Source: Candidatus Parcubacteria bacterium
GTDB taxonomy: Bacteria; Patescibacteriota; Patescibacteriia; Patescibacteriales; UBA12465
Direction of reading: 5' to 3'
Assembly: GCA_037076615.1 (NCBI GenBank)
Contig: AP029158.1
Coordinates: 133,470-197,469 of the forward strand
DNA: 64,000 nt
The notes beneath the pieces are model-generated. The model saw only the letters and a list, made by a program, of their open reading frames with translations, was not told the DNA's origin and made no database searches. Of this stretch, positions 6,560 to 23,869 are shown piece by piece (position 1 is the stretch's first letter; every line of letters starts with the position of its first letter). The position numbers and the translations under genes were made by a program.

Positions 6560-6652
6560 GGAGAGATGGCCGAGCGGCTGAAGGCGGCAGGTTGCTAACT
6601 TGCTATAGGAGTTTACCTCCTATCCAGGGTTCGAATCCCTGTCTCTCCGCCA
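6560..6652 (+). tRNA. tRNA-Ser, anticodon GCU, long variable arm, CCA encoded
   Basis: GGAGAGA acceptor, anticodon stem GCAGG/CTTGC with loop TTGCTAA, long variable arm, T-arm CAGGGTTCGAATCCCTG, 3' end TCTCTCCGCCA. Confidence 0.9.
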
Positions 6653-6682
6653 AGACAATTTAGTATCGTGCAGACCCGAGTA
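6652..6682 (+). repeat. Left copy (T1) of the tRNA-Ser trailer repeat; putative attL region
   Basis: AAGACAATTTAGTATCGTGCAGACCCGAGTA. It shares the blocks TTTA-N-TAT and GACCCGAGTA with 24085-24142. It is 25/26 identical to the tRNA-Ser(UGA) 3' end plus trailer. Confidence 0.6.
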
Positions 6683-6764
6683 ATCGTGATTTAGTTGCGA
6701 CTCGACTGCCTAACAAATTGCTAACAAAAAACAACGATTTTCGAGTCGTTGTTTTTTGTTTAGT

Positions 6765-8087
6765 TTAATCTTCTATCAAGGTCAACTTTTTATCTTTATA
6801 CATTATTTTTGATCTCAGATTAGCTAGTAGCTCTCTTTTTTCAGATACTGCGCCTTCTTTTAATAAGTATTTAGCATAATTTCTTATATCCATTTCTTTG
6901 TCGGTTTTCAGTTTTTCCGTAGCACCCAGTACTGATCTTTGAAAGATATTAAATCGGGCTATTTCATCCTCTAATTTTTGCCTCATTCCTAACTCGTTAA
7001 TATTTACTTTGTCTAATATTTTAAGTAATTCAGCAATAAGCTCTTCTTCTCTGATATATTTATTTTTACAATTTCTATCCCTAGCTCTTGAGCATGAATA
7101 GTAGATATATCTGGCGTGTGTACCATCTTTAAGTTGTTTATATTTTTCTTCTGCTGATATGCCTGACCCGCAATGACCACAAGTAAATAGTTTAGTGAAG
7201 GCAAATTCTCTATTTTCTCTAACAATTTTATCTCTTTTTAATTGAGCTTGAGCTTTTTCAAATAAATCTTTATTTATTATCGGCTTATGTTTTCCCTGAT
7301 ACCAGTTACCGCTACCAACTGGTCTTTCAAATACTCCGTAATAAAAAGGGTTATCTAGTATTCTATATACTCCAGCCAGTGTTAATGGTTTATTTCCTCG
7401 AGTATAGAAGTTTAATTCATGTTTAAGATAGTTATATAATTTCCGACCACTATATTTTTCATAAGCTACTTTTTCAAACATTTTCTTGATAGCTGGCGCT
7501 CTTAATGGATCAATAATAACTTGGCATTTTTTATCCATTCTTTTTTGGTTTAAATAACCTAGCGGAGCAAGTCCAACCCATAAACCCATTTCTGCTCTAG
7601 TCCTTAGCCCTCGTCTAACATTAATTCCTCGATTATCATTTTCTAACTTGGCTTGCGATCCTAAAATCATAAGCAGGAATTTCTCATTTGGATTATTAGA
7701 AAATTTCTGACCATATGTCCTAATTTCTAGCAGGGCACCACTATCCATTAAATCCACTATTTTCCCTAAATCACCAGCATTACGAGATATGCGGTCAGGA
7801 GCCCAAGTCAAAATGGCGTTAAATTTACCCTCTTTGATTTCGTCCACAATCTCATTGAAGACTGGTCTTTGACCTGTTTCTTTGGCGCTGTGCGATTCTC
7901 GCTTTAATTCGACCACATCAAGGCCTTCTCGCTCGGCCAGCTCAAGCATCTCTTTTATTTGGCTATCTATTGATAAGACTTGCCTTTCCTCGCTTTCGGT
8001 CGATTTTCTTGCATAAAGGCAGTATTTTACCTTAATTTTGGTCTCTATTTTGCCTTGAGTCCCTACGGGCATTAATGTTGTATTCAT
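6765..8087 (-). CDS. Large serine recombinase (integrase)
   Basis: N-terminal resolvase-type catalytic motif YARKSTESEERQVLSIDSQ, a recombinase domain, a zinc-ribbon CGHCGS...YYSCS...C and a C-terminal coiled-coil region. Confidence 0.85.
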   Translation of the reverse strand: MNTTLMPVGTQGKIETKIKVKYCLYARKSTESEERQVLSIDSQIKEMLELAEREGLDVVELKRESHSAKETGQRPVFNEIVDEIKEGKFNAILTWAPDRISRNAGDLGKIVDLMDSGALLEIRTYGQKFSNNPNEKFLLMILGSQAKLENDNRGINVRRGLRTRAEMGLWVGLAPLGYLNQKRMDKKCQVIIDPLRAPAIKKMFEKVAYEKYSGRKLYNYLKHELNFYTRGNKPLTLAGVYRILDNPFYYGVFERPVGSGNWYQGKHKPIINKDLFEKAQAQLKRDKIVRENREFAFTKLFTCGHCGSGISAEEKYKQLKDGTHARYIYYSCSRARDRNCKNKYIREEELIAELLKILDKVNINELGMRQKLEDEIARFNIFQRSVLGATEKLKTDKEMDIRNYAKYLLKEGAVSEKRELLANLRSKIMYKDKKLTLIED

Positions 8088-8159
8088 ATACCAACATTAA
8101 TGACGCAACCGCCCTGAAGAGTCTAGGACGCCTCAAGTAGATAAACTGTTGATAACTTT

Positions 8160-8213
8160 ACACATGTTAACTTGACATAAATTTTTTATTAAGCTATAAT
8201 TAACACATGTTAA
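8160..8213 (+). promoter_or_regulatory. Consensus promoter of the hsdM operon flanked by two identical 11-mers
   Basis: ACACATGTTAA at 8160-8170 and 8203-8213. TTGACA (8172-8177), 17-nt spacer, TATAAT (8195-8200). Confidence 0.55.
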
Positions 8214-8238
8214 GTTTATTATAAATTATTTATAAAAT

Positions 8239-10035
8239 ATGTCTCTAGATAAATCCCAGTTTGTTACGCCAACACAACTAGCAAAAATGCTAGGTATTAC
8301 TCGTATTGCAATTCATCAAAAAATCAAAAAAGGTGAAATAAAAGCGGAAAATATTGGTGACCCTTCGAAGCCAACTTATGTTATACCTAAGTCTTCATTG
8401 TCTAAAGAGATTCAAGATCGCATACAGGTAGAACAAAAAAAGGCAACTGAGAGTATAGTTGGTAAGGACGTACAGCACCATGATTTAAATTTTGAAAAAG
8501 AGCTTTGGGCAGCAGCAGATAAACTTCGTGGAAATATTGATGTTTCTGAATACAAGAATATTGTTCTTGGTCTTTTATTTTTGAAATATATATCTGATGC
8601 TTTTTATACTCGCCGCAAAGAACTTGAAAGTCTTACTCGTGATAAAAATAATGAAAATTTTTATGTAGAAGATGATAAGGCTCGAGCACAAATCCTTGAA
8701 ACTAAAGATTTTTATAAAAGTGCTGGTGTATTTTATGTTCCTGAAAAATCAAGATGGGAATACTTGCAAACAAAAACCATGCAATCTGATATTGGTCAGG
8801 TGCTGGATAAGGCAATGGATTATATTGAAGAAGATAATCGAGTCGAACTTGAAGGCGTTCTTCCAAAAATTTATACACGTACAACCCTTGATTATTCTGT
8901 TATCGGTGAGCTTGTAAATATCTTTTCTCGTATTTCATTTGATCATAATTTTGATCGTGAAAAAGATATTCTTGGTCGTATCTACGAATACTTCCTTGGT
9001 CAGTTTGCGTCATCTGAAGGAAAACGTGGGGGCGAATTTTTTACTCCTCGATCGATTGTTAAATTACTCGTAGAAATTCTTGAGCCTTATGAAAATGCTC
9101 GCGTACTAGATCCAGCCTGCGGTAGCGGGGGGATGTTTGTGGCTATGGGTGAATATCTTCGTAACCATGGACAAGATTCATCAAAACTTGCTATCAACGG
9201 TCAAGAAAGTAATCAGACTACGCTTCGCCTCGCAAAGATGAATCTCGCTATTCGTGGACTTTCAGGAAAGATTGAATTAGGAAACACTTATTATCAAGAC
9301 AAATTTCCACATCTGCAGGCAGACTTCGTGATTGCAAATCCACCTTTTAACGGAGAATGGGAGCCGTCAAAACTTTCGGATAATGATCCGCGCATAACAC
9401 TCGGCACTCCACCAAGCGGAAACGCAAACTTTATGTGGGTGCAACATTTTGCACACCATCTTGCGCCAAATGGTTTGGCAGGATTTGTTATGCCAAATGG
9501 AGCACTTGCCGTATCAGGAAAAGAAGGAGAGCTTCGCAAAAAGCTTATTGAGGAAGATTTGGTTGAAGTGATTATTTCTTGCCCATCAAAGCTTTTCTAT
9601 AACGTATCACTTCCTGTTTCTCTTTGGTTTTTAGCAAAGAATAAAAAAGGTGATCGTTTTAGAAATCGTTCGGGCGAAACATTATTTATCGATGCTAGAG
9701 ATACATTTGAACAAATTTCTCGTAAGCAGGTTGTGTTTAACCCAGAACATATTGAGAAAATTTCAAATACTGTTCGTGCGTGGCGTGGAGAAAAAGATGC
9801 AGGCACATACGAAGATGTATCCGGATTCTGCAAGTCTGCATCTCTAGAAGAAATAAAGAAAAATGGATACGTTCTTACTCCTGGTCGTTATGTTGGCTTG
9901 GCTGATGTAGAAGACGATGGAATTTCTTTTGAAGAAAAAATGGAAAAACTTTCATCTGAATTGCGAGTGGCATTTGCAAAAGGTCGAGATTTGGAAAAAG
10001 AGATTGAGAAAAATCTTAAGGAACTCGGATTTTAA
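8239..10035 (+). CDS. hsdM: Type I restriction-modification methyltransferase subunit M with an N-terminal excisionase-type HTH extension
   Basis: HsdM_N-like LWAAADKLRGN..LGLLFLKYISD, motif I LDPACGSGGMF and motif IV ANPPFN. The first ~85 aa contain TPTQLAKMLGITRIAIHQKIKKGEI. Confidence 0.9.
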   Translation: MSLDKSQFVTPTQLAKMLGITRIAIHQKIKKGEIKAENIGDPSKPTYVIPKSSLSKEIQDRIQVEQKKATESIVGKDVQHHDLNFEKELWAAADKLRGNIDVSEYKNIVLGLLFLKYISDAFYTRRKELESLTRDKNNENFYVEDDKARAQILETKDFYKSAGVFYVPEKSRWEYLQTKTMQSDIGQVLDKAMDYIEEDNRVELEGVLPKIYTRTTLDYSVIGELVNIFSRISFDHNFDREKDILGRIYEYFLGQFASSEGKRGGEFFTPRSIVKLLVEILEPYENARVLDPACGSGGMFVAMGEYLRNHGQDSSKLAINGQESNQTTLRLAKMNLAIRGLSGKIELGNTYYQDKFPHLQADFVIANPPFNGEWEPSKLSDNDPRITLGTPPSGNANFMWVQHFAHHLAPNGLAGFVMPNGALAVSGKEGELRKKLIEEDLVEVIISCPSKLFYNVSLPVSLWFLAKNKKGDRFRNRSGETLFIDARDTFEQISRKQVVFNPEHIEKISNTVRAWRGEKDAGTYEDVSGFCKSASLEEIKKNGYVLTPGRYVGLADVEDDGISFEEKMEKLSSELRVAFAKGRDLEKEIEKNLKELGF

Positions 10036-10038
10036 TAT

Positions 10039-11151
10039 ATGAGTAAATTATTAGAACAAATAAATAGTGAACTTGAAACAAAGGAGACCGTGCCCTTGGC
10101 TAATCTTATGTCTCAAATTACCTCCAAGGTAAATAAAATACAGAAGTCTGACTACCTTAAGTTTGGCCTAGTGCCCATTTATGATCAGGGAGATAATGAT
10201 GTGTCGGGTTATTCTAATGATGTAAGTAATGCATATAATGGAAAGCTACCCGTTGTAATCTTTGGAGATCATACACTTAGATTGAAGAGAATCTCGTCGC
10301 CCTTCTTTTTAGGAGCAGACGGTAATCAACTTATTGAGCCTCTAGATGAGAATATTTTAGATAGGAATTATTTTTACTACCTACTTCTTTCTAAAAAACC
10401 AAGAAGTTATGGTTATGAAAGACATTTCAAATATTTAAAAGAAGTTGAGGTAAAAGTACCCAATCTTCCAACGCAAAAGAAAATAGCTGAAATTTTGAGT
10501 GCATATGATGCAAAAATTGAGAATAATAATCTAATTATCAAGAAACTTGAAGCAACCGCTCAAACATTGTTTGACGAGTGGTTTGTGAATTTTAAATTCC
10601 CTGGGTATGAGAAGGTTAAATTTGTTGATAGTGAAATGGGAGAAATTCCTGATGGATGGAATATAAAAAATGTGCTCGATGTAATCGAAAGAATTTCCCC
10701 TGGTAAGAAATACGATAATAAATCCGCATCACCTAGCGGCAGAGTTCCAATTCTTGATCAAGGAGCTTCTGGCTTTATTGGTTATCATGATGACGAACCT
10801 GGTGTTATTGCAAGCATTAATAACCCCGTTGTTATTTTCACTAACCATACTTGTTATTATCGTATTCTTACTGAGCCGTTTTCATGTATTCAAAATGTGC
10901 TTCCTTACGTTGGTAAAAACGGATATGACACATTCTTTGTGTATTTTCTCACAAAAGAAAAGATAAAAATGTCTGAGTACAAAGGTCACTGGCCAGAGTT
11001 TGAACAACAAGTTTTTGTTATGCCCATTCCAGAAATTGCTAATCAATTCTCGAAGATGGCAAAAGTATTTATTGAAAAAATTGTTTCTTGCGAAAAAGAA
11101 AATGTTTCCTTGAAATCTCAGCGGGATCTATTATTAGCTAAATTAATTTAA
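10039..11151 (+). CDS. hsdS: Type I R-M specificity subunit S
   Basis: Two variable halves are separated by a conserved helical spacer LPTQKKIAEILSAYDAKIENNNLIIKKLEATAQTLFDEWFV. There is a C-terminal helix SLKSQRDLLLAKLI. The gene starts 3 nt after hsdM. Confidence 0.8.
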   Translation: MSKLLEQINSELETKETVPLANLMSQITSKVNKIQKSDYLKFGLVPIYDQGDNDVSGYSNDVSNAYNGKLPVVIFGDHTLRLKRISSPFFLGADGNQLIEPLDENILDRNYFYYLLLSKKPRSYGYERHFKYLKEVEVKVPNLPTQKKIAEILSAYDAKIENNNLIIKKLEATAQTLFDEWFVNFKFPGYEKVKFVDSEMGEIPDGWNIKNVLDVIERISPGKKYDNKSASPSGRVPILDQGASGFIGYHDDEPGVIASINNPVVIFTNHTCYYRILTEPFSCIQNVLPYVGKNGYDTFFVYFLTKEKIKMSEYKGHWPEFEQQVFVMPIPEIANQFSKMAKVFIEKIVSCEKENVSLKSQRDLLLAKLI

Positions 11152-11154
11152 TAT

Positions 11155-12003
11155 ATGGATCCATTGATAACAAAAGAATTAGTAGAGCTTGGCTCACAGA
11201 CAGCATCAAAACCAGTCGCTAGTTTTTCAGAATTAATAGCTTTAAAGTTCTTTGGTAAATCAATAGCAAAACTTAAAGCAGAAGCGGAAGTTGAAGGAGA
11301 CAAAGTATTGTCTAGATGGGAGGAGGTTGAGAAACCTCTCTGGCTTCAAGCAGAAGCCGTAAAGATGAATAGACAATATGATAATTTTGGAAATACACTC
11401 AAGAAAGCATCAAAATACATTACAGAGGAAAATACCATCTCAAATGAAAATGATTTATTTTGGGGGTTATTAGAGCATTCAAAGGAAATTACCAATGAAG
11501 ATGTTCAAGATCTAATTGCAAAGATTATAGCTGGTGAGTACAATGCACCTGAAACATACTCAATGAGTACTCTTCAGATCTTGAAATCTTTAGGTAAAAA
11601 AGATTTAGAAAAATTTACATTTTTTGCAAGTTTTTACTTGCCAGAGCATGGTTTTTTCAAAGACTTTTTTAATATGCAGGAATCCTCTCTATTGGTACGC
11701 ACTAAACTAGGGATTAATTATGCAGACTTTTTAGAATTACAAAATCTCGGCCTGATTCAAAGTGGAGAATATACAATCTCAGTTTCGGTTAAAAAAGATG
11801 CTATATTTTCCTTGGATTATTATGGGGATAGGTTTTTATTCAAAGCTACTAAAGACTTCGATAAATGGAATTTCCCAGAGTGTTACGCATTAACTAAGGC
11901 AGGAAAAGAAATCCTTCAGCATTTAAATATAAGTAAATCTAGCGATTTTAAAGAGTGGTTAGTTGAAGATTTAAAGACTAAAGGTTTTGAACCACAAAAT
12001 TAG
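11155..12003 (+). CDS. Unknown protein embedded between hsdS and hsdR (possibly DUF2806/Abi-alpha-like; from memory only)
   Basis: 282-aa ORF with 3-nt and 5-nt junctions to its neighbours. The segment DLIAKIIAGEYNAPETYSMSTLQILKSLGKKDLEKFTFF resembles DUF2806-type proteins as I recall them. Confidence 0.45.
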   Translation: MDPLITKELVELGSQTASKPVASFSELIALKFFGKSIAKLKAEAEVEGDKVLSRWEEVEKPLWLQAEAVKMNRQYDNFGNTLKKASKYITEENTISNENDLFWGLLEHSKEITNEDVQDLIAKIIAGEYNAPETYSMSTLQILKSLGKKDLEKFTFFASFYLPEHGFFKDFFNMQESSLLVRTKLGINYADFLELQNLGLIQSGEYTISVSVKKDAIFSLDYYGDRFLFKATKDFDKWNFPECYALTKAGKEILQHLNISKSSDFKEWLVEDLKTKGFEPQN

Positions 12004-12008
12004 ATAAT

Positions 12009-15000
12009 ATGAACACATTAAACGAAAACAACCTAACAGAACAATCACTTATCGAATGGTTACAAGGTCAGGGTTATGAGTATGTGTATGGCCCAGCCAT
12101 GGCACCGAATCAACCTAACGCCGAGCGTGAGGATTTTCGAAGTGTTGTACTCAAGAATAGACTTATTACTTCTGTACGTCGTTTTAATCCACAACTTCCA
12201 GTTCAACAAGCAGAGCAAGTTGTAGATGATATTGCCTTATATCACAACGCTGATGCAATGCTTGGCAACAAAGAAATGTTTACTCTCATTACTGAAGGAG
12301 TGAAAAAGACATGGCAAGAAGACGGTATAGAAAAAACAGAAGTTGTCAAACTTATTGATTTTGAAAATGCAGAAGCAAATGATTTCTTAATAACGAATCA
12401 ATTTACCGTTCAGGGCGTAGAGAATGTTTGTCGTCTTGATGGAGTAGTTTTTGTGAACGGTATTCCGCTTTCAGTATTAGAGCTCAAGAGTCCTGTGCGT
12501 GAAAAAGCAACAATCGGCCAAGCTTATCGAGATATGGAATACTACAAAAAAGAGATTCCAAAGATGTTTTTGTATAACCAAGTGCTTTGTCTTAGCGATC
12601 TTACCGAAGCGAAACACGGAACAATTTCTTCTTCTTGGGAATGGTATGGAACATGGAAAGGAGTCAACTCAGAAGGAGATGCTCCGAGTGGTGCGACTGA
12701 ACTCGAGGTGCTTGCAAAAGGTCTTTTTAATAAAAAACGGTTTCTTGATCTCATTTACAACTTCATAGTTTTTGAAGCTGATGGTGATGGTGATGCGGTT
12801 ACGTACACAAAGAAGATGGCTTTATACCATCAATACTATGGTGTAAATAAAACTATTGATAGCACTGTTCGTTCGGTGAGTGGTGAACAAGATCGAAAAA
12901 TCGGCGTTTTTTGGCACACACAGGGATCTGGAAAGTCACTCTCTATGGTATTTTATGTGAACAAAACAAAACGCATTCCAGAATTAAAAAGTCCTGCATA
13001 TGTATTTTTAACTGATCGTGAAGATTTGGACGATCAACTCTTCAAGACATTTAGTCGTACAGGATACGGCACTCTTGCCAAGCGGGCATCGAGTATTAAG
13101 GATCTGAAGGGCAAACTTACTCATCTTGGAAGTGAACTTATTTTCACCACTATTCAAAAATTTCAAGATGACCCTGATGCAAATAATGTTTTAAGTGACA
13201 GAGAAAACATCATTGTTCTTACTGACGAGGCGCATCGAACTCAGTACAGCATGCTTGCTGGTAATGCGAGACAAGCTTTGCCTAATGCGAGTTTTTTAGG
13301 TGTGACAGGAACTCCGCTTTCAAATCATGATAAAAACACAATGCGTGTTTTCGGTGACATCATAAGTTCATACAAAATTGGGCAAGCTGTGAAAGATAAA
13401 GCAACCGTTCCTATTTACTATGAAGGTCGCTTAATCCCACTTCATTTAGCTGATAAATTTATAGACAGTAAACTCGATGAAATTCTTGGGGAAATTGTGG
13501 TTGATGAAAAAGTAAAAGCCCGCAGGGAATGGGCAGTTCTTGAAGAAGTTGTGGGCGCACCAAGTCGTATTGAACAAATCGCCAAAGATGTCGTTTCTCA
13601 CTTTAATAATCGACCGATTGAAGGAAAAGCAATGGTGGTTACAATGAGCCGATCTATTGCAGTTGCGATGTATAACGCAATAAAGAATATTGAAGGAGCG
13701 CCTGAGTGCGCCGTCATTATTTCTGGAATGGATGATTTCCCAGAGCAGATTCAAGGTGAGCATGATGTGAAAAAACTCGAGAAGAGATTTAAGAAATCAA
13801 ACGACGCACTTCGACTGGTTATCGTTTGTGATATGTGGCTCACTGGTTTTGACGTGCCTAATATGCATACAATGTATCTTGATAAGCCACTCAAGAATCA
13901 TGGGCTTATGCAGGCGATTGCTCGCGTGAATCGTGTTTATAAAGATAAGCCAGGTGGATTGATTGTTGACTATATTGGTATTGCTGAGAATTTAAAAAAA
14001 GCTCTTGCTATATATGACACAGATGTTCAAAAAGAAGCAATGATTCCGCTTGATGACGTTATTGCGGAAATGAACATCCTCCACAGAGAGGTGTCTTTAT
14101 ATTTTTCAAATATAGATTTTTCGGGATGGAGAAATAAAAAAGGTATTGAATTAGTTGAATTATTTCAATCATCAATGAATGAGGTTATTTCAAAAGATGG
14201 CATCCTGTCTGATGACAGGAAAATGGTATATATAGGGCTTGTGTCTAAACTTTCAAGTCTCCACGCTCTTGTAATGCCAGGTGAGGAAGCGATGAAGATT
14301 GCAACTGATATTCAGTTCTTTCAATCTATTCGTGAGGCGATAAATAAACAAACTGTAATACCTCATATTATCTTTCCTGAAGCTACAGAGAGCGCTATTC
14401 GCAGTCTTGTTCAAGATTCTGTACAAGCAGAAGGCGTTATTGATTTGTTTACTAAAGAAGGCGAAGAAGGAAAAAGTATTTCTATTTTTGACGAGCGCTT
14501 TTCGGAAGAGATTAAGAAGGTTAAATATCAAAACCTTGCTATCGACACTATTCGTAAGATGCTAGATAAAGAAATTAGCGTGCGTTCTCGAACGAATAAG
14601 GCTCGTTATGAAACGATGCTTACACTACTCACGGAACTTATTGAGAAATACGAAAATAATGTTATTAACTCTTCAGAAATTATAAAACATTTGCTTGAAA
14701 TCGCAGATGAAATAAAAAAGCTAGATGCAGAAAGCGAAGAACTGGGATTGTCTGAAGAAGAGATTGTTTTTTATGACACGCTTTCATCTGACCCAGACCT
14801 TAAAAAGGCTGGATTAGACATTAAGGATTTTGTGCAAGAACTCACCAAAAGAATTCGCCGAGATATTTCGATTGATTGGATTAATAACGAAACTATTAAA
14901 GCAAGAATCAGGCAAAACGTCAGACTCCTTTTAATTCAGAAAGGAATTGTTGAAGAGAAGCAAACGGAAAAAATAGTTAATATAATATTTCTAGAAACAG

Positions 15001-15032
15001 CTAGAGTTTTTAGAGAGTATGTACCATCCTAA
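12009..15032 (+). CDS. hsdR: Type I restriction endonuclease subunit R
   Basis: Walker A HTQGSGKS, DEAH box LTDEAHRTQ, motif VI QAIARVNR and a long helical C-terminal domain. Confidence 0.9.
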   Translation: MNTLNENNLTEQSLIEWLQGQGYEYVYGPAMAPNQPNAEREDFRSVVLKNRLITSVRRFNPQLPVQQAEQVVDDIALYHNADAMLGNKEMFTLITEGVKKTWQEDGIEKTEVVKLIDFENAEANDFLITNQFTVQGVENVCRLDGVVFVNGIPLSVLELKSPVREKATIGQAYRDMEYYKKEIPKMFLYNQVLCLSDLTEAKHGTISSSWEWYGTWKGVNSEGDAPSGATELEVLAKGLFNKKRFLDLIYNFIVFEADGDGDAVTYTKKMALYHQYYGVNKTIDSTVRSVSGEQDRKIGVFWHTQGSGKSLSMVFYVNKTKRIPELKSPAYVFLTDREDLDDQLFKTFSRTGYGTLAKRASSIKDLKGKLTHLGSELIFTTIQKFQDDPDANNVLSDRENIIVLTDEAHRTQYSMLAGNARQALPNASFLGVTGTPLSNHDKNTMRVFGDIISSYKIGQAVKDKATVPIYYEGRLIPLHLADKFIDSKLDEILGEIVVDEKVKARREWAVLEEVVGAPSRIEQIAKDVVSHFNNRPIEGKAMVVTMSRSIAVAMYNAIKNIEGAPECAVIISGMDDFPEQIQGEHDVKKLEKRFKKSNDALRLVIVCDMWLTGFDVPNMHTMYLDKPLKNHGLMQAIARVNRVYKDKPGGLIVDYIGIAENLKKALAIYDTDVQKEAMIPLDDVIAEMNILHREVSLYFSNIDFSGWRNKKGIELVELFQSSMNEVISKDGILSDDRKMVYIGLVSKLSSLHALVMPGEEAMKIATDIQFFQSIREAINKQTVIPHIIFPEATESAIRSLVQDSVQAEGVIDLFTKEGEEGKSISIFDERFSEEIKKVKYQNLAIDTIRKMLDKEISVRSRTNKARYETMLTLLTELIEKYENNVINSSEIIKHLLEIADEIKKLDAESEELGLSEEEIVFYDTLSSDPDLKKAGLDIKDFVQELTKRIRRDISIDWINNETIKARIRQNVRLLLIQKGIVEEKQTEKIVNIIFLETARVFREYVPS

Positions 15033-15035
15033 AAT

Positions 15036-15977
15036 ATGATTAAAAAAATACTTTCAATTGATGGTGGTGGGATAAAAGGGGTTTTTCCTCTGTCTTTTTT
15101 AAGCACAATTGAAGAGGTGACTGGCAAAAAAATATCAGATTATTTCGATCTTATTGTTGGTACTTCAACTGGTGGTATTATTGCACTTGGCATTGGCGCT
15201 GGCTTTTCCGCAAAGGAACTATTAGAATTTTATGAAAAACTAGGCCCAGATGTGTTTGTTGGCAATAGGTATATTAAATTTTTAAGAAGCATGGGGGTAT
15301 CGAAATATAGCAATAAAGCATTAAAGAATTCCTTATTTGAAAAGTTTGGAGATAAAAAACTTGGTGAAAGCAAGAATAGACTTGTAATTCCTAGTTTAAA
15401 TCTTGAAAATGGAGAGGTTCATGTATATAAAACCGCTCATCATGAAAGATTCCAAAGAGATTATAAAGAAAATATTGTTGACATAGCCCTGGCGACATCA
15501 GCGGCTCCGACATATTTTCCGACTCATACTTCAGTTTCAGGCACCCCCTTGGTTGACGGTGGGTTATGGGCAAACAATCCAGCTGGCCTTGCTGTTGTCG
15601 AGGCGATAGGCATTCTTGAATGGCCTCGTGATCAATTAAAAGTGCTAAGTATAGGATGCACAGATGAGCCATTAAATATTAAGAGGGCACGCAATCACCC
15701 AGCAGGTTTATTTTATTGGGGAACAAGAATAGTTAAGTTGTTTATGTCGGCTCAATCCTCCGCTTCTTACGGAACCGCTCAATTGCTCGCAGGCCATTCC
15801 AATATTACAAGGATTAATCCTGTTGTCTCAAGTGGAAAATTTGGATTAGACGTTGTTAAAGAAATTAAATCACTTAAGGGGCTGGGAGAAACTGAGGCAC
15901 GCAAAGCTCTGCCAAATATTGAATTATTTTTTACTGACAAAGTTGACCCTTTTATTCCTAAACATCAATTACTATGA
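15036..15977 (+). CDS. Patatin-like phospholipase (CapV-like CBASS effector candidate)
   Basis: Oxyanion motif DGGGIKG, nucleophile elbow GTSTGG and catalytic Asp VDGGLWANNP. Confidence 0.85.
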   Translation: MIKKILSIDGGGIKGVFPLSFLSTIEEVTGKKISDYFDLIVGTSTGGIIALGIGAGFSAKELLEFYEKLGPDVFVGNRYIKFLRSMGVSKYSNKALKNSLFEKFGDKKLGESKNRLVIPSLNLENGEVHVYKTAHHERFQRDYKENIVDIALATSAAPTYFPTHTSVSGTPLVDGGLWANNPAGLAVVEAIGILEWPRDQLKVLSIGCTDEPLNIKRARNHPAGLFYWGTRIVKLFMSAQSSASYGTAQLLAGHSNITRINPVVSSGKFGLDVVKEIKSLKGLGETEARKALPNIELFFTDKVDPFIPKHQLL

Positions 15978-17362
15978 AATTGGAATCATCATTTAATGAC
16001 TTTTTAGAAAATACCGTTAATCTTAATGGGACGCGATATCAAATTGCAAAATCTGGGATCGAAACCATGAAAAGTATTTTGCAAAATGATGAAATTTTTG
16101 GAGATAAATTTATCTCTATTAAACCGCAGGGTTCTTTTAGACAAGAAACTATTATTAAGCCAGTTCGTTGTGGTACGGATTTTGATGTAGACATTCTTTT
16201 TGAGGTGAAGGCGACAGCTGGATGGGAGTCCAAAGATTATTTAAATAAACTTTCTTCCCAATTTAAAAAACTAGATAGATATAAAGATAAAGTTGACACA
16301 AGAGGAAAATCACGCTGTGTTACTATAGATTATGAGAACGATTTCCATATCGATATTGTTCCCGCTATAAATATTAGCAATCAGTCACTTGTGATGAATA
16401 AAACTGAGAATAAATTTGAGTTAACAGATGGAGATGGTTATGCAGAATGGTTTTATCGTCAGGATAGTATTACTGGTAAAAAATATCTTAAGAAAATAGT
16501 TAGACTTTTAAAATACATTCGTGATTTTAAGCAAGAGTTTGATATAAAATCTGTTGCATTAACAACTTTTGTCGGCAATCAAGTACTGTCTAGCGATAAC
16601 CTTGTTGATCAATATCCTGACCTATCCACTTCTTTTGTTCTTTTGCTTAGTCGTTTAGATTTATATTTACAATCTAATGCGGTAATGCCAATTATTGTAA
16701 ATCCAGTTCTTCCATCTGAAAATTTTAATCGTCATTTAAAGCAAGATGACTATCTAAAATTTAGAGACGCAATACACAAATATTCTCAAATAGCTCTTGA
16801 CGCATATAATGATGTTGACGAGCATAGAAGTTTATCTAAGTGGCAAAAGATCTTTGGCGATTCGTTTACCGTTAAAGAAAATAGAAATTTATCAGTTTCA
16901 ATAAATGGATTACATTTGGCAAATTTTAGTCACAAACAAGAATTGGCAGATTTAAATATACCAATTATTGATACTTTTGCATCTGTGGAAATTAGAGCAG
17001 GCCTATATTGGGGAAAGGGTGACTATAAAATAGTAAATAGAAGATTTAAAGGGTCCTTTTCTACAAAAAACGAATTGCCCAGATTCCATTGGCTAAAATA
17101 TACTGCAATTACAAATTATAACAAACCCTATGATGTGTATTGGCAGGTTGTTAACACTGGAGCCAGTGCTCAAAGCCAAGGCGCTAAAGGTTTGAGGGGT
17201 GAAATTAAATTGGGTTCCAATGAACAATGGGAAAGAAGTTTATATACAGGTGTTCATTGGGTAGAGTGTTTTATTGTTGATATAGCTACAAACGCATGTG
17301 TGTGTCGTAGCGGACCATTTTATGTAGGCTTTCAGGAAAGAGTTGGTGATGTGTCCGATTAA
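15974..17362 (+). CDS. CD-NTase/SMODS-type nucleotidyltransferase with a C-terminal AGS-C-like sensor domain
   Basis: Pol-beta NTase signature QGSFRQET..(14 aa)..DFDVDILF plus a third acidic motif FHIDIVPA. ATGA overlap with the patatin gene. The C-terminal ~150 aa are non-NTase; the AGS-C call is from memory. Confidence 0.7.
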   Translation: MKLESSFNDFLENTVNLNGTRYQIAKSGIETMKSILQNDEIFGDKFISIKPQGSFRQETIIKPVRCGTDFDVDILFEVKATAGWESKDYLNKLSSQFKKLDRYKDKVDTRGKSRCVTIDYENDFHIDIVPAINISNQSLVMNKTENKFELTDGDGYAEWFYRQDSITGKKYLKKIVRLLKYIRDFKQEFDIKSVALTTFVGNQVLSSDNLVDQYPDLSTSFVLLLSRLDLYLQSNAVMPIIVNPVLPSENFNRHLKQDDYLKFRDAIHKYSQIALDAYNDVDEHRSLSKWQKIFGDSFTVKENRNLSVSINGLHLANFSHKQELADLNIPIIDTFASVEIRAGLYWGKGDYKIVNRRFKGSFSTKNELPRFHWLKYTAITNYNKPYDVYWQVVNTGASAQSQGAKGLRGEIKLGSNEQWERSLYTGVHWVECFIVDIATNACVCRSGPFYVGFQERVGDVSD

Positions 17363-17370
17363 TTAGTAAT

Positions 17371-17631
17371 ATGAGAAAATTTTATATAGACAACAGGATA
17401 GATTGGCTTAGTACCATATTTTATATTATAGGTATGCCATTTAGATTAATCGATTGGTTAATAAAAAAGATGTTCAAGTATTTAAAAATTATAATTTCAG
17501 ATATTTTCCACGGTGTATATAAAAAACTTATAGCTATTATTGTGTTTGTTATTGTAATTTTTATTATGCTTTATATTTCTAACCTTACTCATGTTCAGGA
17601 GTTAAAAAGTTTACCTTTAATTGTTAAGTAA
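17371..17631 (+). CDS. Small two-helix membrane protein (86 aa)
   Basis: Hydrophobic segments WLSTIFYIIGMPF and LIAIIVFVIVIFIMLYI. Starts 8 nt after the NTase gene. Confidence 0.45.
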   Translation: MRKFYIDNRIDWLSTIFYIIGMPFRLIDWLIKKMFKYLKIIISDIFHGVYKKLIAIIVFVIVIFIMLYISNLTHVQELKSLPLIVK

Positions 17632-17675
17632 ATAAAGGTCGAATAAAAAATACAAAAATTATTAACTAAAAATAT

Positions 17676-17888
17676 ATGGATAAGCCAAAGTATATTCGCA
17701 ATGCTGGCAAACCATGGACTCCTCAGGAAGAGAAAAAATTGTTTCAACTTGCTAAAGTCAATACTCCAACCAGAGTTATGGGTCTTGAGCTTGGAAGACC
17801 AGTAGGAGGAATTCAAAGCAAGGCTAGTCAATTAGGAATTAGTTTGAAGCCAACTAACCAATCCCCCTATAATCGCAAAACCAAATAG
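17676..17888 (+). CDS. Small SANT/Myb-like HTH protein (70 aa)
   Basis: KPWTPQEEKKLFQLAKVNTPTRVMGLELGRPVGGIQSKASQLGI resembles a single Myb-type repeat. Confidence 0.4.
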   Translation: MDKPKYIRNAGKPWTPQEEKKLFQLAKVNTPTRVMGLELGRPVGGIQSKASQLGISLKPTNQSPYNRKTK

Positions 17889-17906
17889 TAAATTTAATAG
17901 AAATTT

Positions 17907-17935
17907 TAAAATACGCCCAAATGGGCGTATTTTTG
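17907..17935 (+). terminator. Intrinsic terminator ending the long R-M/CBASS gene string
   Basis: ATACGCCC-AAAT-GGGCGTAT (17911-17930) followed by TTTTT. Confidence 0.65.
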
Positions 17936-17999
17936 TAATTGTAGACAAACTGTAGGTAACTTTTCTTTACTTTTAGGCCTGTTTAAGCTATATTTTAAG

Positions 18000-18147
18000 T
18001 GCGAAACCACAATTGAATATTCCGAAAGAAGCATGAAAAATGCTGTCATTTGTATACAGGAACGGGCACTCCGACCCTATACAAGTGGCAGTCTTTCGGG
18101 ACACCAATTGTGGTTTCGCAACCAAGGTCGGGTGTCCGTTTTTGTTT
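18000..18147 (+). promoter_or_regulatory. Riboswitch-like structured 5' leader with a terminator-type expression platform
   Basis: Perfect 16-bp long-range helix 18000-18015 / 18105-18120 encloses nested helices 18022-18029/18092-18099, 18030-18034/18040-18044 and 18050-18056/18078-18084. Alternative pairings end at a T-run (18139-18143). Confidence 0.5.
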
Positions 18148-18175
18148 AGTGAAATTAAATATTAATATAAAAAAT

Positions 18176-18844
18176 ATGGATAATATTATTGGATTTATAC
18201 TTTTTATTTCTTTCCTATCCTTTTTTGTCGGGCTAATAAAGCCCAGCATTTTTAGCAGAGTTTTTAAAAATAAAAAGGAGATAAATCGCAAATTTATACT
18301 AAAAGTTTTTGGCTCTAGCACTTTCGCCCTATTATTAATACTAGGAATGGTATCTGAAAACAAGTCTGATAATATTGATCCAATAGTTAATAATTCGGCT
18401 GAGGTGTTTGTTGAAGAAAAGGCTGAAAGTTTTGTAGAAGAAATTCAAGAAGATGAGGCACTGTCTCAGGATGAGCTTGTTAGTGCCAATCAAGCAGAGC
18501 CTGTAACGACTAAAATCGTGACTGAAAACAAAGAGGAGGTCGCCCATGTCACCAATCAGCCCGCCAAAGAGATAAATAATGCAAAAACAGATAACGCTCC
18601 TGGTACAGAAATAATTAAGACAGACCTAACTCCACCCACAGAAGAAAGTGAGCCAGTTCAGCCAACTAAAGCTGTAGTTAGCGGGAAGTTTTATACCTCA
18701 TCTCATGGTAGTGCCAAGTACTATTATCCTGCAAGTTGTTCTGACTGGCAAAATTTAAGTCAAAGCTATTTACGAGAGTTTGATTCTTTAGAATCTTTAT
18801 TAAAAAAATATCCGTCTAGGACCTTAAGTCCTACGTGTAATTAA
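18176..18844 (+). CDS. Membrane-anchored protein with an acidic linker and a small Cys-containing C-terminal domain
   Basis: Start moved to MDNIIGF because the ORF-track N-terminus reads through the structured leader. Two N-terminal TM helices. C-terminus is GKFYTSSHGSAKYYYPASCSDW...SPTC. Confidence 0.5.
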   Translation: MDNIIGFILFISFLSFFVGLIKPSIFSRVFKNKKEINRKFILKVFGSSTFALLLILGMVSENKSDNIDPIVNNSAEVFVEEKAESFVEEIQEDEALSQDELVSANQAEPVTTKIVTENKEEVAHVTNQPAKEINNAKTDNAPGTEIIKTDLTPPTEESEPVQPTKAVVSGKFYTSSHGSAKYYYPASCSDWQNLSQSYLREFDSLESLLKKYPSRTLSPTCN

Positions 18845-18853
18845 TAAAAATAT

Positions 18854-19057
18854 ATGAAAAAGAAAACACCCGCCGCTTTATTAGCACTTTTTCTAGGAGG
18901 ATTTGGAATTCATAAGTTCTACCTAGGCAAAACCACTCCAGGAGTTTTTTACCTTTTATTTTGCTGGACATTTATACCGGCGATTTTGGCATTCATCGAT
19001 TTTATAATAATATTATCGACCAACAAAGAAGCATTTAATAAAAAGTATAACGTTTAG
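18854..19057 (+). CDS. TM2 domain protein (67 aa)
   Basis: LALFLGGFGIHKFYLGKTTPGVFYLLFCWTFIP matches the TM2-domain pattern. Confidence 0.6.
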   Translation: MKKKTPAALLALFLGGFGIHKFYLGKTTPGVFYLLFCWTFIPAILAFIDFIIILSTNKEAFNKKYNV

Positions 19058-19509
19058 TTCGGCTGATTATCAATAGGATAGTGACCGTATTTTTGCTTAT
19101 ACATGTTAAATGCTTCATAAATTGATTTACTCTGTTGCTTGTTAAAACCTTTACTTTTTGTAGTCCCGCATTGGTCACATTTTTCTCCGATTTTAACCTC
19201 TTTTTTCGGAGGCTGAAAAATGACTGGCATTTTAGGGTAGTATCTCGAATCGTTGTTAGCAAGGAAATACCTAATTGACGGCCCGTCTCCTTCGTTTATT
19301 TTCTTATATAAAGCCATTTCTGTAATATCAATCAATTCTTTTCTGCCAAAATGCAAAGCATTGTCTACTTTCTCTTTGAAATTAGCATTGTTTTTTATCC
19401 AGCGATATATTGTTGCCTTGCTAATCCCAACTTTTTTACAGGCATAGCTTATAAAAGGTCTTTCTCTAAGAATTTCCAGAAATTTAGATTTTTCTAGATT
19501 AGTTCTCAT
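19054..19509 (-). CDS. HTH DNA-binding protein (terminase-small-subunit-like N-terminus)
   Basis: ACKKVGISKATIYRWIKNN helix-turn-helix. Overlaps the upstream ParB-MTase gene by 11 nt. Confidence 0.45.
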   Translation of the reverse strand: MRTNLEKSKFLEILRERPFISYACKKVGISKATIYRWIKNNANFKEKVDNALHFGRKELIDITEMALYKKINEGDGPSIRYFLANNDSRYYPKMPVIFQPPKKEVKIGEKCDQCGTTKSKGFNKQQSKSIYEAFNMYKQKYGHYPIDNQPN

Positions 19510-20833
19510 ATATTTTCACTCTTTTTTTGCCCGTCATTTTTTCCCAGCGATTAAGTATTACCTCTGCATAGACAGGTGATTTTTCCATCAGAAAACAACG
19601 GCGACCTATTTTATTAGAAGCAATAAGAGTGCTTCCGCTTCCACCAAAAGGCTCAAGTACTAACTGCCCCCGAGTCGTTAGTACTTTTATGTATGGGATA
19701 AGTATTTCTAGTGGCTTAGTGCCAAAGATTATGCCTTGTCCTGATGATTGCTCGTCGGCCGCTTTAAACTCTATAAAATCTGTAGGGCAATACTTTTTAC
19801 CTTTGCCATATGATTCCCAGTGAGGTTTGCCAGAAATAGCAAACAGAGCAGTCTCGTATTCATTTTTTACTAACTCATCTTCTGGCTCTTCATTAGCCTC
19901 AGTAAAATTTTCACTGGTGCCAACCATAGCGATGTCATACTTTGAAAAGAATTTATGCTTTGAAGCATAACCCTGGTTTCTGTTAGGTAAATGCCAGACT
20001 AACATATTCCTTACTTTCCAATATTTTTCCATCTCGCCCCAAATGATGCGAATATTTTTCCAATTCTCATAAACAATAATTGAAAAGTTTTCTGCTTGTA
20101 CTTTAGAAACATTGGCCATCCATAGCTCTGTAAAGTTGTCGGGCAAAGAATCCGTCTCCAAATAGCGCCTATTTTTCTTAGCGCCAAATCCAGTGGTTGC
20201 CTCGCCGTGCCTAGATTTACCGTGCAGATAATCCAGAATATATGGTGGGTCAGTCATGACCATATCGATCTTGTGATCTCCGACCAGTCTTAGCATGTCA
20301 GCTTCGATGGTACTATCTCCGCACATTAGCCGTGAACCGTCCAGATCATAGACATCGCCTTTCTTGACGCTTATCTCCTCAATATTTAGCTTTTTCAATT
20401 CTTTCTCTAAATCGAAGATTTCGGTATTGTCCTCATCCTCGAAGATATCATCCAATTCTTCGGAATCGAAGCCAATGTCCTGCAAGAACGCTTCATCAAA
20501 TTCGGCAAGTAGACCGTAGTCGAATTCGCCAAGATTCTTATTGAGCCTGAGATTTAGTTCTTTTTCCTTTTCTAAATCAGGAATGTTTATATAGCAGACT
20601 GGCACAGTCTCGAAGCCTAGTTCCTTGGCCATCTGCCAGCGAAAGTGTCCGCCGATTATGACATTCATCCGCTCCGGAGCGGAATTGACTACGAAGGGAT
20701 CGACGAGGCCGAAGCGTCGTAGGCTCTCCTTGAGCTGTTCACTTGCTTCCTTATCCCACTTGCGGGGATTGTATTCAGCGGGTCTTAACTCGCCGATGGG
20801 CAGGTAAGTCACCTGCAAATCTTTTCTTTCCAT
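19499..20833 (-). CDS. ParB-like nuclease domain fused to a DNA (N4/N6) methyltransferase
   Basis: ParB N-terminal LPIGELRPAEYNPRKW, catalytic motif TDPPY and SAM motif EPFGGSGSTLIAS. Confidence 0.8.
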   Translation of the reverse strand: MERKDLQVTYLPIGELRPAEYNPRKWDKEASEQLKESLRRFGLVDPFVVNSAPERMNVIIGGHFRWQMAKELGFETVPVCYINIPDLEKEKELNLRLNKNLGEFDYGLLAEFDEAFLQDIGFDSEELDDIFEDEDNTEIFDLEKELKKLNIEEISVKKGDVYDLDGSRLMCGDSTIEADMLRLVGDHKIDMVMTDPPYILDYLHGKSRHGEATTGFGAKKNRRYLETDSLPDNFTELWMANVSKVQAENFSIIVYENWKNIRIIWGEMEKYWKVRNMLVWHLPNRNQGYASKHKFFSKYDIAMVGTSENFTEANEEPEDELVKNEYETALFAISGKPHWESYGKGKKYCPTDFIEFKAADEQSSGQGIIFGTKPLEILIPYIKVLTTRGQLVLEPFGGSGSTLIASNKIGRRCFLMEKSPVYAEVILNRWEKMTGKKRVKIYEN

Positions 20834-21105
20834 ATTTTTAGTCGGGGTATTTTTGTAATAAAAAAGTCCAAGAAAAACTCAAAAATACCCCTATTAGAAA
20901 ATAGGAATTCTTGAACTTTTCTCGGACTTTCCTTTAGGGGTGCATTTTATTGCTACCTGGTCAGGATTACCGAACGGTAATATCTATGATATTGGTCGTG
21001 TGGCGGTTTAAAACGTTTAGAGCTTATAGCTGTTTCACGTCCTCGTTTTTGCCTGTTTCCGTGAGGCTCACGAGCACCCGCCCGGGGGGAATAAAGAACT
21101 CAGAA

Positions 21106-21133
21106 ACTATATTCATCTTACCACGGATGTCAA
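21106..21133 (-). promoter_or_regulatory. Near-consensus promoter for the ParB-MTase transcript (~265-nt leader)
   Basis: On the minus strand: TTGACA (plus coordinates 21128-21133), 16-nt spacer, TATAGT (21106-21111). Confidence 0.45.
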
Positions 21134-21292
21134 TATTGGTTAATAATAACTGTTTTAGGATGGGATTGTAAGTTGTAAATAACCTTGATTTTACTGGGTT
21201 TTTGTGATATTTTAAATTGATACATAAATTCTTGACCCTGTCATAGCATATCCCTAAAAATGATTATGACATGTGGATAAAGCACCTCATCT

Positions 21293-22057
21293 ATGAAGAT
21301 AATTAAAAAGATTATCGCAAAGAATAGAATAAAGAGAGAGATGAATGACGTTCTGGCTATAAAGCAGCTGGTGTTAGCTCATCTGCATGAATTAATAAAG
21401 CGTCGCAAAGAGATTGATGAAAATCTTTTTGAAGTGACAGCCTTTTTATTAGATGAAATAGGAGATGCTCTTGCCGCTATTATAACTTTAAAAAAGGATC
21501 ATTTGAAAAGTAGTATCATGATTTCTAGATATATATTAGAGGACTGTGTTAATTTGCAATATATCTATAAAGAAGATTCAGAAAAAAGAGCTTTAAATTA
21601 CAGAGCTTTTTCGGCAAAGGAATTATTAAATAGAGCAGAGATGTATGAGGGGGATGATGACAGAATTAAAAAAGAAATTCCAAGAATTAAAGAAAGGGCT
21701 GAAAAATATTCTCCTTCTGGAAAAAATTCTAATCATTGGGATGGTTTGTCTACTAAAAAAATAATGTCCGATTTAAATTTAGAAGGTATATATCAAATTT
21801 GGTATGTTAGAATGTCTTCTTACATCCACCCACAGTATAGGGGAAGCAAAATAAGATCTAGTGATAAGGGTGAGTATATAGAATTTTTGAAGAAAATGGT
21901 GTTTAAAGATTTAAATCTTCCAATACTCGAATCTTTAAGAGCGGTAAATAAGAAATTTGATTTGCTTGAAGGCGCAGTTATCATTAGTAATTATCCAAAA
22001 GAAAAAGCTACCTTAGTTTTTAGTATCAATGAGCGCAGAGAGCCAAAAAGGCCATGA
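21293..22057 (+). CDS. Hypothetical protein, possible HEPN-type (AbiV/DUF5677-like) abortive-infection protein
   Basis: All-helical 254-aa ORF. Candidate Rx4-6H motif RMSSYIH, and SRYILEDCVNLQYIY resembles DUF5677-type proteins (from memory). Confidence 0.35.
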   Translation: MKIIKKIIAKNRIKREMNDVLAIKQLVLAHLHELIKRRKEIDENLFEVTAFLLDEIGDALAAIITLKKDHLKSSIMISRYILEDCVNLQYIYKEDSEKRALNYRAFSAKELLNRAEMYEGDDDRIKKEIPRIKERAEKYSPSGKNSNHWDGLSTKKIMSDLNLEGIYQIWYVRMSSYIHPQYRGSKIRSSDKGEYIEFLKKMVFKDLNLPILESLRAVNKKFDLLEGAVIISNYPKEKATLVFSINERREPKRP

Positions 22058-22073
22058 AAAAAATTCATTAAAT

Positions 22074-22101
22074 TTGACTTTTCATTAATTTATGCTATAA
22101 T
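22074..22101 (+). promoter_or_regulatory. Near-consensus promoter
   Basis: TTGACT (22074-22079), 16-nt spacer, TATAAT (22096-22101). Confidence 0.55.
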
Positions 22102-22107
22102 ATAATT

Positions 22108-22300
22108 GTACTTAACAAACATAACTCTAGCACTGAGTCTAAAAAGTGCCATTTATTTCTCCTGTTTTATACAGGTAGGCAAGCTGGGAAATCTGTGGCA
22201 AGCTAAATGGAATAAGTGACTGATCGCTGAAGGCGGTTGGGAGATTTCAATCTAAGAGATAGCAATATCTTTTGATGAAATCTCTTAGCCGCTTTTTTTT
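22108..22300 (+). ncRNA. About 190-nt non-coding transcript or attenuator leader ending in a strong intrinsic terminator
   Basis: No ORF longer than about 11 codons found by manual scan of the plus strand. Hairpins GCACT..AGTGC and CCTGT..ACAGG. Terminator arms GCGGTTGGGAGATTTCA (22233-22249) and TGAAATCTCTTAGCCGC (22276-22292) followed by T8. Confidence 0.5.
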
Positions 22301-22332
22301 GTTTGTTGAGCTAGAAAGAGAGGTGATAAAAT

Positions 22333-22860
22333 ATGATAAAATTAAATAGTATTGAAGAAATGATGCAAGAGCATTGCTCTAGAATTTATTGGGAAATAGA
22401 TGATATTGATGAAAATGTTATGTTTATGGTAGCTAAAATTAACGAACAGAATTTATCTGCAGATTTAGAGAAGATGGCACGAGACCTTTTGGCTGATTTC
22501 ATTGGAGCCACTACAATTCTTAGAAGTGCTGCTATAGAGCTGGGTGAAAAGTTCGCTTGGTTTATGTTTGACCCTGGAGTAGAAAGAATAAAATTGCCAG
22601 AACTAGACACTGGAGATATTGCTCAGCTAATAAGCGATTTACTAAATGAGCAAGCAGTTAAATTTAATGACTTTATTAAGGTTCTTGAGAAAAAAAGAAA
22701 AAACAAGGAAATTGATAGTGGCATGATTGTCTTATTCTGTGAATCAGGTGGAAACATCATGAGAGATAAAGGAGAGGTCATTAACTCCTTAAGATTTTTA
22801 GCTAATAATTATAATAAATACCAATATGAAATTAACTCAAAAAATACAACAAGCAATTAA
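22333..22860 (+). CDS. Hypothetical acidic helical protein (175 aa)
   Basis: Preceded by AGAGAGGTGA 8 nt upstream, the strongest Shine-Dalgarno-like site among the starts I checked. The 3' end overlaps the next gene by 35 nt. Confidence 0.55.
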   Translation: MIKLNSIEEMMQEHCSRIYWEIDDIDENVMFMVAKINEQNLSADLEKMARDLLADFIGATTILRSAAIELGEKFAWFMFDPGVERIKLPELDTGDIAQLISDLLNEQAVKFNDFIKVLEKKRKNKEIDSGMIVLFCESGGNIMRDKGEVINSLRFLANNYNKYQYEINSKNTTSN

Positions 22861-23407: not shown

Positions 23408-23426
23408 TAAAATAAATATCAAATTT

Positions 23427-23855
23427 ATGACTAAAACAATAAAAATTTGGCTCTTAAAACTTTTTCCTTTAATCATTATTTATCTGTTATTTTTAATTAA
23501 ATTTATTGGTAACAGTGATTATGAATCTTTAATTGTTTTGCTGGCAGCGCTACCTTTAACTATTTATATTTTTACTGAAAATATAAAGCTAAAGAAAAAT
23601 TTACAATATTTACTTTATTTTTTTATTGTAGGAATTATAATTTATTGGGTATTTGCATCTTATGGTTTAATATGGGGGATCTTTAATGGACAATTTATGT
23701 TCTCTGGCTTCTCCTGTTTTTTTACTGGCTGTTACGGAGAAACAGGTTGGGGTTTATTTACTCAAAGCGCATTATTTACTGTTGATTTAAAGGTATTACT
23801 TTATTTAGCTGTTATTTTTCTTGCAATTAAAAATAGAAGATTAGTTCGTAATTAA
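23427..23855 (+). CDS. Multi-pass membrane protein (142 aa from MTKTIKIW)
   Basis: Four hydrophobic segments. Start moved from the ORF-track 23379 to the first ATG past the overlap with the SAH gene end. Confidence 0.45.
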   Translation: MTKTIKIWLLKLFPLIIIYLLFLIKFIGNSDYESLIVLLAALPLTIYIFTENIKLKKNLQYLLYFFIVGIIIYWVFASYGLIWGIFNGQFMFSGFSCFFTGCYGETGWGLFTQSALFTVDLKVLLYLAVIFLAIKNRRLVRN

Positions 23856-23869
23856 GGCGCACAGATTAT

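Follow-up and report, generated by a model that had tools for sequence, protein, structure and literature searches.

In the EcoprrI prr locus, prrC lies between hsdS and hsdR. A 64,000-nucleotide stretch of DNA from a probable Patescibacteria genome (the window) carries, in the equivalent position of a type I restriction–modification (R-M) operon, a gene for a 282-amino acid protein. The question it raises is whether this gene serves the restriction enzyme encoded around it or is a defense gene in its own right that travels in the operon. That extra genes occur inside type I operons, as the earlier note on this DNA had pointed out, is established by PrrC, RloC, and TgvAB (PMC11411939) and by the "guilt-by-embedding" survey of Payne et al. 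(2024). We therefore asked what the protein is, how constant its position is, and how often its relatives are joined to type I genes.

The open reading frame (ORF) begins with ATG and runs from 11155 to 12003 on the + strand. Pfam assignments of the genes flanking it, which are on the same strand, describe a complete type I R-M system in the order hsdM–hsdS–ORF–hsdR: hsdM (8239–10035, 598 amino acids; N6_Mtase 346 bits, HsdM_N 90 bits), hsdS (10039–11151, 370 amino acids; Methylase_S 52 bits), and hsdR (12009–15032, 1007 amino acids; HSDR_N, SWI2_SNF2, ResIII, T1R_D3-like, and T1RH-like_C). Only 3 nt separate the hsdS stop codon from the start of the ORF, and 5 nt separate its stop codon from the hsdR start; coordinates and Pfam neighbors thus agree with the position and junctions first described for it. 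The ORF is a real gene and not a chance ORF, because 257 homologs (E down to 1e-176) were retrieved from among 5.8 billion proteins, and nearly all of them have ~283 amino acids, align with it from end to end, and have the same start and end positions. The named close relatives are from Patescibacteria MAGs (Yonathbacteria and Paceibacteria), which points to such an organism as the source of the window, and close relatives carry the NCBI label "DUF2806 domain-containing protein".

The gene is part of a longer array. Three nucleotides after hsdR begins a gene for a CapV-like, patatin-like CBASS phospholipase (15036–15977, + strand; NCBIfam CBASS_lipase 282 bits against a cutoff of 200, PADLOC Effector 351 bits), and this gene overlaps by 4 nt that of a CBASS CD-NTase (15974–17362, + strand; SMODS 95 bits, AGS_C 66 bits, PADLOC Cyclase 446 bits). 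From 8172 to 17362, six co-directional genes with junctions of −4 to +5 nt have the look of a single "super-operon" of type I R-M, Abi-like, and type I CBASS genes. A sequence match to the sigma-70 consensus, TTGACA-17-TATAAT, lies at 8172–8200 on the + strand, ~40 nt before hsdM; no other 12/12 match occurs between 8000 and 18000, and this one is likely to be the promoter of the whole operon. As far as the end of the CBASS genes, we saw no + strand sequence that would make a convincing terminator. Judged from these sequence features, hsdM–hsdS–DUF2806–hsdR–capV–cdn is probably one transcription unit.

The 282-amino acid protein is a clear member of the DUF2806 family. It matches the Pfam profile PF10987 at 70 bits (E = 3.4e-19; gathering threshold 24.5) over residues 71–269 and profile positions 11–220 of 221, and all of its 54 aligned relatives (54/54) match the same profile. 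The resemblance to DUF2806 that the earlier note had suggested for one region of the protein is borne out by this match, and the motif quoted there (DLIAKIIAGEYNAPETYSMSTLQILKSLGKK...) is the best-conserved stretch of the family alignment. Seventeen residues are invariant in the 54 sequences, mostly clustered as D100-x-F102...K110...Q118...K123-I-x-A-x-E-Y-N130...M137...K144-x-L146; K123, I124, A126, E128, Y129, N130, M137, K144, and L146 are among them, as are the polar residues R73 and N77, and we recognized no catalytic signature in the set of 17. Almost all homologs have 280–295 amino acids, and in the 54 aligned sequences the central motif K-I-x-A-x-E-Y-N...M...K-x-L is invariant. When 1.84 billion cluster representatives were searched exhaustively with the profile, 5,827 proteins reached E ≤ 1e-3, of which 3,022 had E ≤ 1e-10 and 44 had E ≤ 1e-30; from these counts, DUF2806 is a very large family, in which the 282-amino acid protein falls into a small subfamily. 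The extensions of long family members contain no known domain except in one case, the only fusion to a known domain that we saw: a Saccharibacteria protein of 466 amino acids (P0042; L006, 5911–7392) that joins DUF2806 to a C-terminal NUDIX hydrolase.

Other resources added little to the family assignment. NCBIfam TIGR03899 matched residues 70–154 only, at 60.9 bits, below its curated cutoff of 155.65; no PADLOC 2.0.0 model matched, the sole match, to WH_III-A (E = 0.031), being at chance level; and in PHROGs the sole match was to the unannotated phrog_2232. With a pI of 5.1 and a net charge of ~−9, the protein is mildly acidic; it is also soluble. As the earlier note had observed by eye, it has no recognizable nuclease, ATPase, or membrane domain: none was found with Pfam, NCBIfam, or PADLOC, and the highest hydropathy over 19 residues (Kyte–Doolittle) is ~1.0. 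Two candidate classes were rejected on these properties, a membrane protein by the lack of any hydrophobic segment and a strongly acidic DNA mimic by the small net charge. More generally, we found no catalytic, membrane, or nucleic acid-binding feature that could account for killing. A confident AF2 model built on the 54-sequence alignment (mean pLDDT 86.5, pTM 0.82) is helical over residues 1–200 and has a small β-rich domain at residues 201–282. Foldseek found no structural neighbor of this model in the PDB (best E = 0.67, TM ≤ 0.26), and phmmer and profile hmmsearch against PDB sequences gave chance matches only; PDB entry 3H35, cited by Lossouarn et al., was absent from the PDB search matches. 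Among the viral structures of BFVD, Foldseek gave one real match, to the unnamed A0A291AUV8 (E = 2e-10).

The earlier note had likened the same region to Abi-alpha as well as DUF2806. Abi-alpha is EF2833 of prophage 6 in Enterococcus faecalis V583 (Pfam Abi_alpha, PF14337/DUF4393); it causes premature lysis, and a similarity to PF10987 has been reported (PMC6356687). The 282-amino acid protein gave no match to PF14337 at E ≤ 0.1, the gathering threshold being 29 bits. Weak matches to PF14337 were obtained with 5 of the 54 relatives (best E = 4.5e-4), and three broader members of the family (P0183, P0235, and P0171) scored 21–26.6 bits, under the 29-bit threshold, with alignments that cover almost the whole Abi_alpha model (E = 7e-6 to 3.6e-4). 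We then compared alignments with hhalign. As the DUF2806 alignment set against the single Abi_alpha sequence of phage phiNM1 was uninformative, we used an alignment of 53 homologs of the phiNM1 protein ABF73047, a genuine Abi_alpha protein whose homologs were confirmed as PF14337; ABF73033, another candidate for the phiNM1 Abi-alpha homolog, was discarded, as it matched neither Pfam nor the DUF2806 alignment. The two alignments matched over 147 columns with E = 3.3e-4, at a probability of only 38%, and their motifs came into register: LEHSK...LIAKIIAGE with LEASK...MFAKLIASS, STLQILKSLG with SFVEIIKQLS, and LQNLGL with NLxRLGL. From these sequence comparisons, we consider with moderate support that DUF2806 and Abi-alpha are remotely related, at the level of a superfamily and not of a family. 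Of the resemblance to Abi-alpha, then, a remote homology is supported by the hhalign result and the cross-matches, and membership in PF14337 is not.

The proteins are alike in size (272–285 amino acids for Abi-alpha), in an N-terminal helix region that begins "MDP...", and in the central motif LE(H/A)SK...(I/F)AK(I/L)IA...(L/I)K(S/Q)L..., which hhalign aligned; their C-terminal domains did not align. They also differ in their distribution. Abi-alpha is mainly prophage-borne and found in Firmicutes, whereas the DUF2806 family was absent from the phage collections that we searched: no homolog came from 50,697 phage records, searched by tblastn, or from the viral contigs of IMG/VR. No phage genes were found around the DUF2806 gene in the window, and a search of plasmids gave one distant match, in Paraburkholderia.

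A closer point of reference is Belisama, a DUF2806 single-gene anti-phage system from the chromosomal integron of Vibrio cholerae N16961 (Darracq et al., bioRxiv 10.1101/2024.07.02.601686). Belisama is toxic on overexpression, such that reduced induction was needed, and at high MOI it leads to "strong and unrecoverable culture lysis" (bioRxiv 10.1101/2024.07.02.601686). Both proteins belong to PF10987, Belisama according to that paper and the comparison being one of family assignment alone; both have a single domain without a recognizable enzymatic domain; and most relatives of the 282-amino acid protein are, like Belisama, encoded by stand-alone genes. The settings differ, in that Belisama is carried by an integron cassette in a gammaproteobacterium and the 282-amino acid protein is encoded within the type I R-M operon of what is probably a Patescibacteria genome.

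We next examined how constant this setting is. An identical protein is encoded on two other contigs in the same operon, and the hsdS–X–hsdR slot is kept by relatives that are 89%, 81%, 77%, 76%, 73%, 60%, and 53% identical. Every assessable relative from 100% down to 57% identity occupies this slot, as does the 53% identical one (L045). In six operons, the junctions measure 3–4 nt upstream and 1–5 nt downstream of the DUF2806 gene, and no Shine–Dalgarno sequence was seen at them; the tightness of the junctions, together with this absence, suggests that DUF2806 is translationally coupled to hsdS and hsdR. The surrounding enzyme is not always the same. The L042 operon encodes a DUF2806 protein that is 60% identical to that of the window next to an HsdR only 34% and an HsdM 42% identical, while in the L045 operon the corresponding values are ~53–54% for DUF2806, 72% for HsdR, and 76% for HsdM. 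On these identities, two different type I families share the slot, and the L042 values are at odds with DUF2806 having simply co-diverged with HsdR and HsdM, which we therefore reject.

Other positions in these operons take varied cargo. The slot between hsdM and hsdS is empty in the window and is filled elsewhere by Hypoth_Ymh (PF09509), DUF2130, or unannotated proteins of 254–263 amino acids; the slot after hsdR holds CBASS in the window and GmrSD (GmrSD_N) or DUF6119 elsewhere. Across L036, L039, L040, L045, and L046, we observed that the cargo of these two slots varies and the DUF2806 slot is constant. In a second clade, 35–41% identical to the 282-amino acid protein, the gene directly follows, and overlaps, a fused hsdM–hsdS gene of 806–824 codons, which in L074 and L080 comes after an hsdR gene of 853–865 codons. 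The fused HsdM–HsdS proteins of these two loci (L074, 916–8748; L080, 31–6711) have two Methylase_S domains; in L080, a KilA-N protein is encoded between hsdR and the fused gene, and in L074 the DUF2806 gene is followed by genes for an unannotated 243-amino acid protein and a Peptidase_M78 (IrrE-like) protein. Two further arrangements were seen, hsdM–x–hsdS–DUF2806 in L086 and hsdM–Fic–x–DUF2806–hsdS in L046.

How often homologs lie inside type I R-M operons, a question raised together with the original observation, was addressed by untargeted scans of species-representative genomes and JGI metagenomes. Type I genes were joined to 10 of 84 distinct homologs (12%), compared with a background joining rate of ~2%, a rough internal estimate (binomial P ~1e-5), and only type I genes and related methylases were enriched. 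Among the homologs at least 52% identical to the 282-amino acid protein in these scans, 4 of 5 were joined to type I genes. The remaining 88% of homologs had no R-M junction. Their neighbors were heterogeneous, with nothing in common: many were housekeeping genes, and there were also genes for LexA-like proteins, resolvases, a Schlafen-like helicase, and a type II R-M pair. Moreover, several embedded proteins have close sisters that stand alone (L074/L070, 88% identical; L080/L066, 80%; L045/L047, 76%), and the genes for these sisters are located outside R-M operons and have upstream intergenic regions of their own. Thus, the linkage of DUF2806 to type I R-M is recurrent but not obligate.

The explanation that we consider best, and to which we would give an even chance, is that the DUF2806 gene is an autonomous abortive-infection gene of the Abi-alpha/Belisama type carried in a type I R-M operon. 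An anti-phage role is plausible, because Belisama and Abi-alpha are both anti-phage and because the family is enriched beside type I R-M. The family membership, the anatomy of the operon, the conservation of the slot, the type I enrichment, and the close relatives outside R-M operons are shown here; beyond them, we propose that the soluble protein would be toxic when active and would respond to infection, its activation leading to early lysis or death of the infected cell. The gene would ride as a passenger in the slot equivalent to that of prrC; it would be transcribed from the hsdM promoter, and its translation would be coupled to that of hsdS and hsdR. Restriction, DUF2806, and the downstream CBASS might then be expressed, and transferred, together as a layered defense on a serine-recombinase island. 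Independence from the Hsd proteins is suggested by the 76–88% identical sisters outside R-M operons and, by analogy, by TgvAB, which is embedded in the type I R-M system of V. cholerae VPI-2 and protects without the hsd genes, albeit 10–100-fold more weakly against several phages (PMC11411939). Several observations speak against an autonomous passenger. Its strict retention in one slot in two type I families looks more specific than hitch-hiking needs, the support from Abi-alpha comes from a remote relative only (the hhalign probability being as low as given above), the protein showed neither a feature that could account for killing nor a match to a PADLOC 2.0.0 model, and no homolog turned up in the phage collections searched, unlike the mostly prophage-borne Abi-alpha.

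The slot itself invites a different explanation, modeled on PrrC, in which a putative toxin is masked by HsdM, HsdS, and HsdR and is freed once an anti-restriction protein of the phage (Ocr, ArdA, or Stp-like) has put the enzyme out of action. PrrC and RloC share with DUF2806 the position inside a type I operon, between hsdS and hsdR, and a suicide function that backs up restriction as a second line could be envisaged here too. Translational coupling across the 1–5 nt junctions would coordinate synthesis of such a guard with that of the enzyme; the slot is the same even where HsdR and HsdM have diverged much further than DUF2806 (L042); no fewer than three operon architectures show the type I linkage; and the enrichment does not extend beyond type I genes and related methylases. 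The likeness does not extend to the protein, which lacks the ABC-ATPase (AAA_13-type) and nuclease modules of PrrC and RloC and has no similarity to them in sequence or fold, nor any structural match in the PDB. PrrC is, besides, almost exclusively embedded (Payne et al. 2024), compared with R-M linkage in only ~12% of the DUF2806 family; the 76–88% identical stand-alone sisters argue against an obligate link, and Belisama and Abi-alpha are each active as a single gene. The restriction-linked fail-safe or sensor proposed in the earlier note is therefore not the reading that we favor, and we regard a guard of this kind, the main rival, as unlikely. In one version, the DUF2806 proteins of this clade would be dedicated type I guards, which would bind HsdS/HsdR, sense anti-restriction inhibition, and then trigger lysis. 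We hold this version to be quite unlikely; were it true, it would represent a functional analog of PrrC free of ATPase and nuclease, and it would explain both why two unrelated type I families use the same slot and why a second clade follows a fused hsdM–hsdS gene.

Two further explanations dispense with killing or with defense altogether. A subunit of the type I enzyme that is not toxic and has an accessory or regulatory task, for example in assembly, restriction alleviation, or expression control, would account for the tight coupling of the gene to the subunit genes on either side, for its conservation with them, and for an acidic, soluble product without an enzymatic motif, and the PADLOC winged-helix-like match could be cited in its favor were that match not at chance level. 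Such a subunit is hard to reconcile with a large family that occurs mostly away from R-M systems, with the movement of the gene between type I families without co-divergence, and with the fact that the DUF2806 protein Belisama is toxic and anti-phage by itself, and we consider it very unlikely. The gene could, alternatively, be a passenger without a role in defense, either a selfish, addiction-type gene or an unrelated one, the R-M operons being permissive hot spots on mobile islands. Many homologs do have housekeeping-type neighbors, and type I operons do take up unrelated cargo (Hypoth_Ymh, DUF2130, Fic, GmrSD, and DUF6119). The published anti-phage phenotype of Belisama and the strong conservation of the sequence, with its 17 invariant residues, weigh against this possibility, which also seems to us quite improbable.

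While embedding in type I operons is already known, we have not found the recurrent link to DUF2806 described, either in the literature that mentions DUF2806 or as a PADLOC 2.0.0 model; DUF2806/PF10987 was likewise not found in the text of Payne et al. (2024) or in those of its supplements that were searched. TgvAB and the HEC/PDC candidates of that survey resemble the present case as defense genes nested in a multi-gene immune operon, but they belong to other protein families. At 50% identity, DUF2806 falls into ~5,800 clusters, and a single member of the family has been tested by experiment; a recurrent, slot-specific association with type I systems lends the proposed role in defense independent genomic support. 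It would also extend this role to Patescibacteria, about whose immune repertoire little is known. Because the protein occurs both with and without cis-encoded Hsd partners, it offers a natural system for distinguishing direct phage sensing from the monitoring of a restriction enzyme. The order hsdM–hsdS–DUF2806–hsdR–capV–cdn, for its part, provides a compact example of layered immunity from a single putative promoter.

The operon is located in what appears as a low-GC island of the window, at 6560–24500, where GC content is 31–43% compared with 45–47% in the flanks; the operon block itself has 33–38%, compared with 46% in the adjacent recG, and the island ends before tyrS (25171–26358). At its edge, a large serine recombinase (6765–8087, − strand; Resolvase, Recombinase, and Zn_ribbon_recom) adjoins a tRNA-Ser gene (6560–6652), and a recombinase upstream of hsdM is found also in L038–L040. 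We found no convincing pair of att-type direct repeats flanking the island. HsdM has an N-terminal extension of ~85 amino acids (8239–8500) with weak HTH_17/excisionase-like matches at residues 9–55 (E = 0.0016), which could be an autoregulatory DNA-binding domain. Eight nucleotides after the CD-NTase gene, an ORF of 86 codons (17371–17631) without a Pfam match encodes a product whose C-terminal half is hydrophobic by eye and which could be a small membrane partner of CBASS. On the − strand, at 19054–20833, the gene for an HTH protein adjoins that for a ParB_N–N6_N4 DNA methyltransferase fusion of 444 amino acids. The same fusion is encoded a few kilobases downstream of the L038/L039 and L040 operons (439 amino acids in L040) and thus appears to be part of the same family of islands. 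Finally, among the small unannotated ORFs at 21293–23855 are genes for a DUF5677 protein (21293–22057) and an HD-domain protein (22826–23407), which may be further defense cargo.
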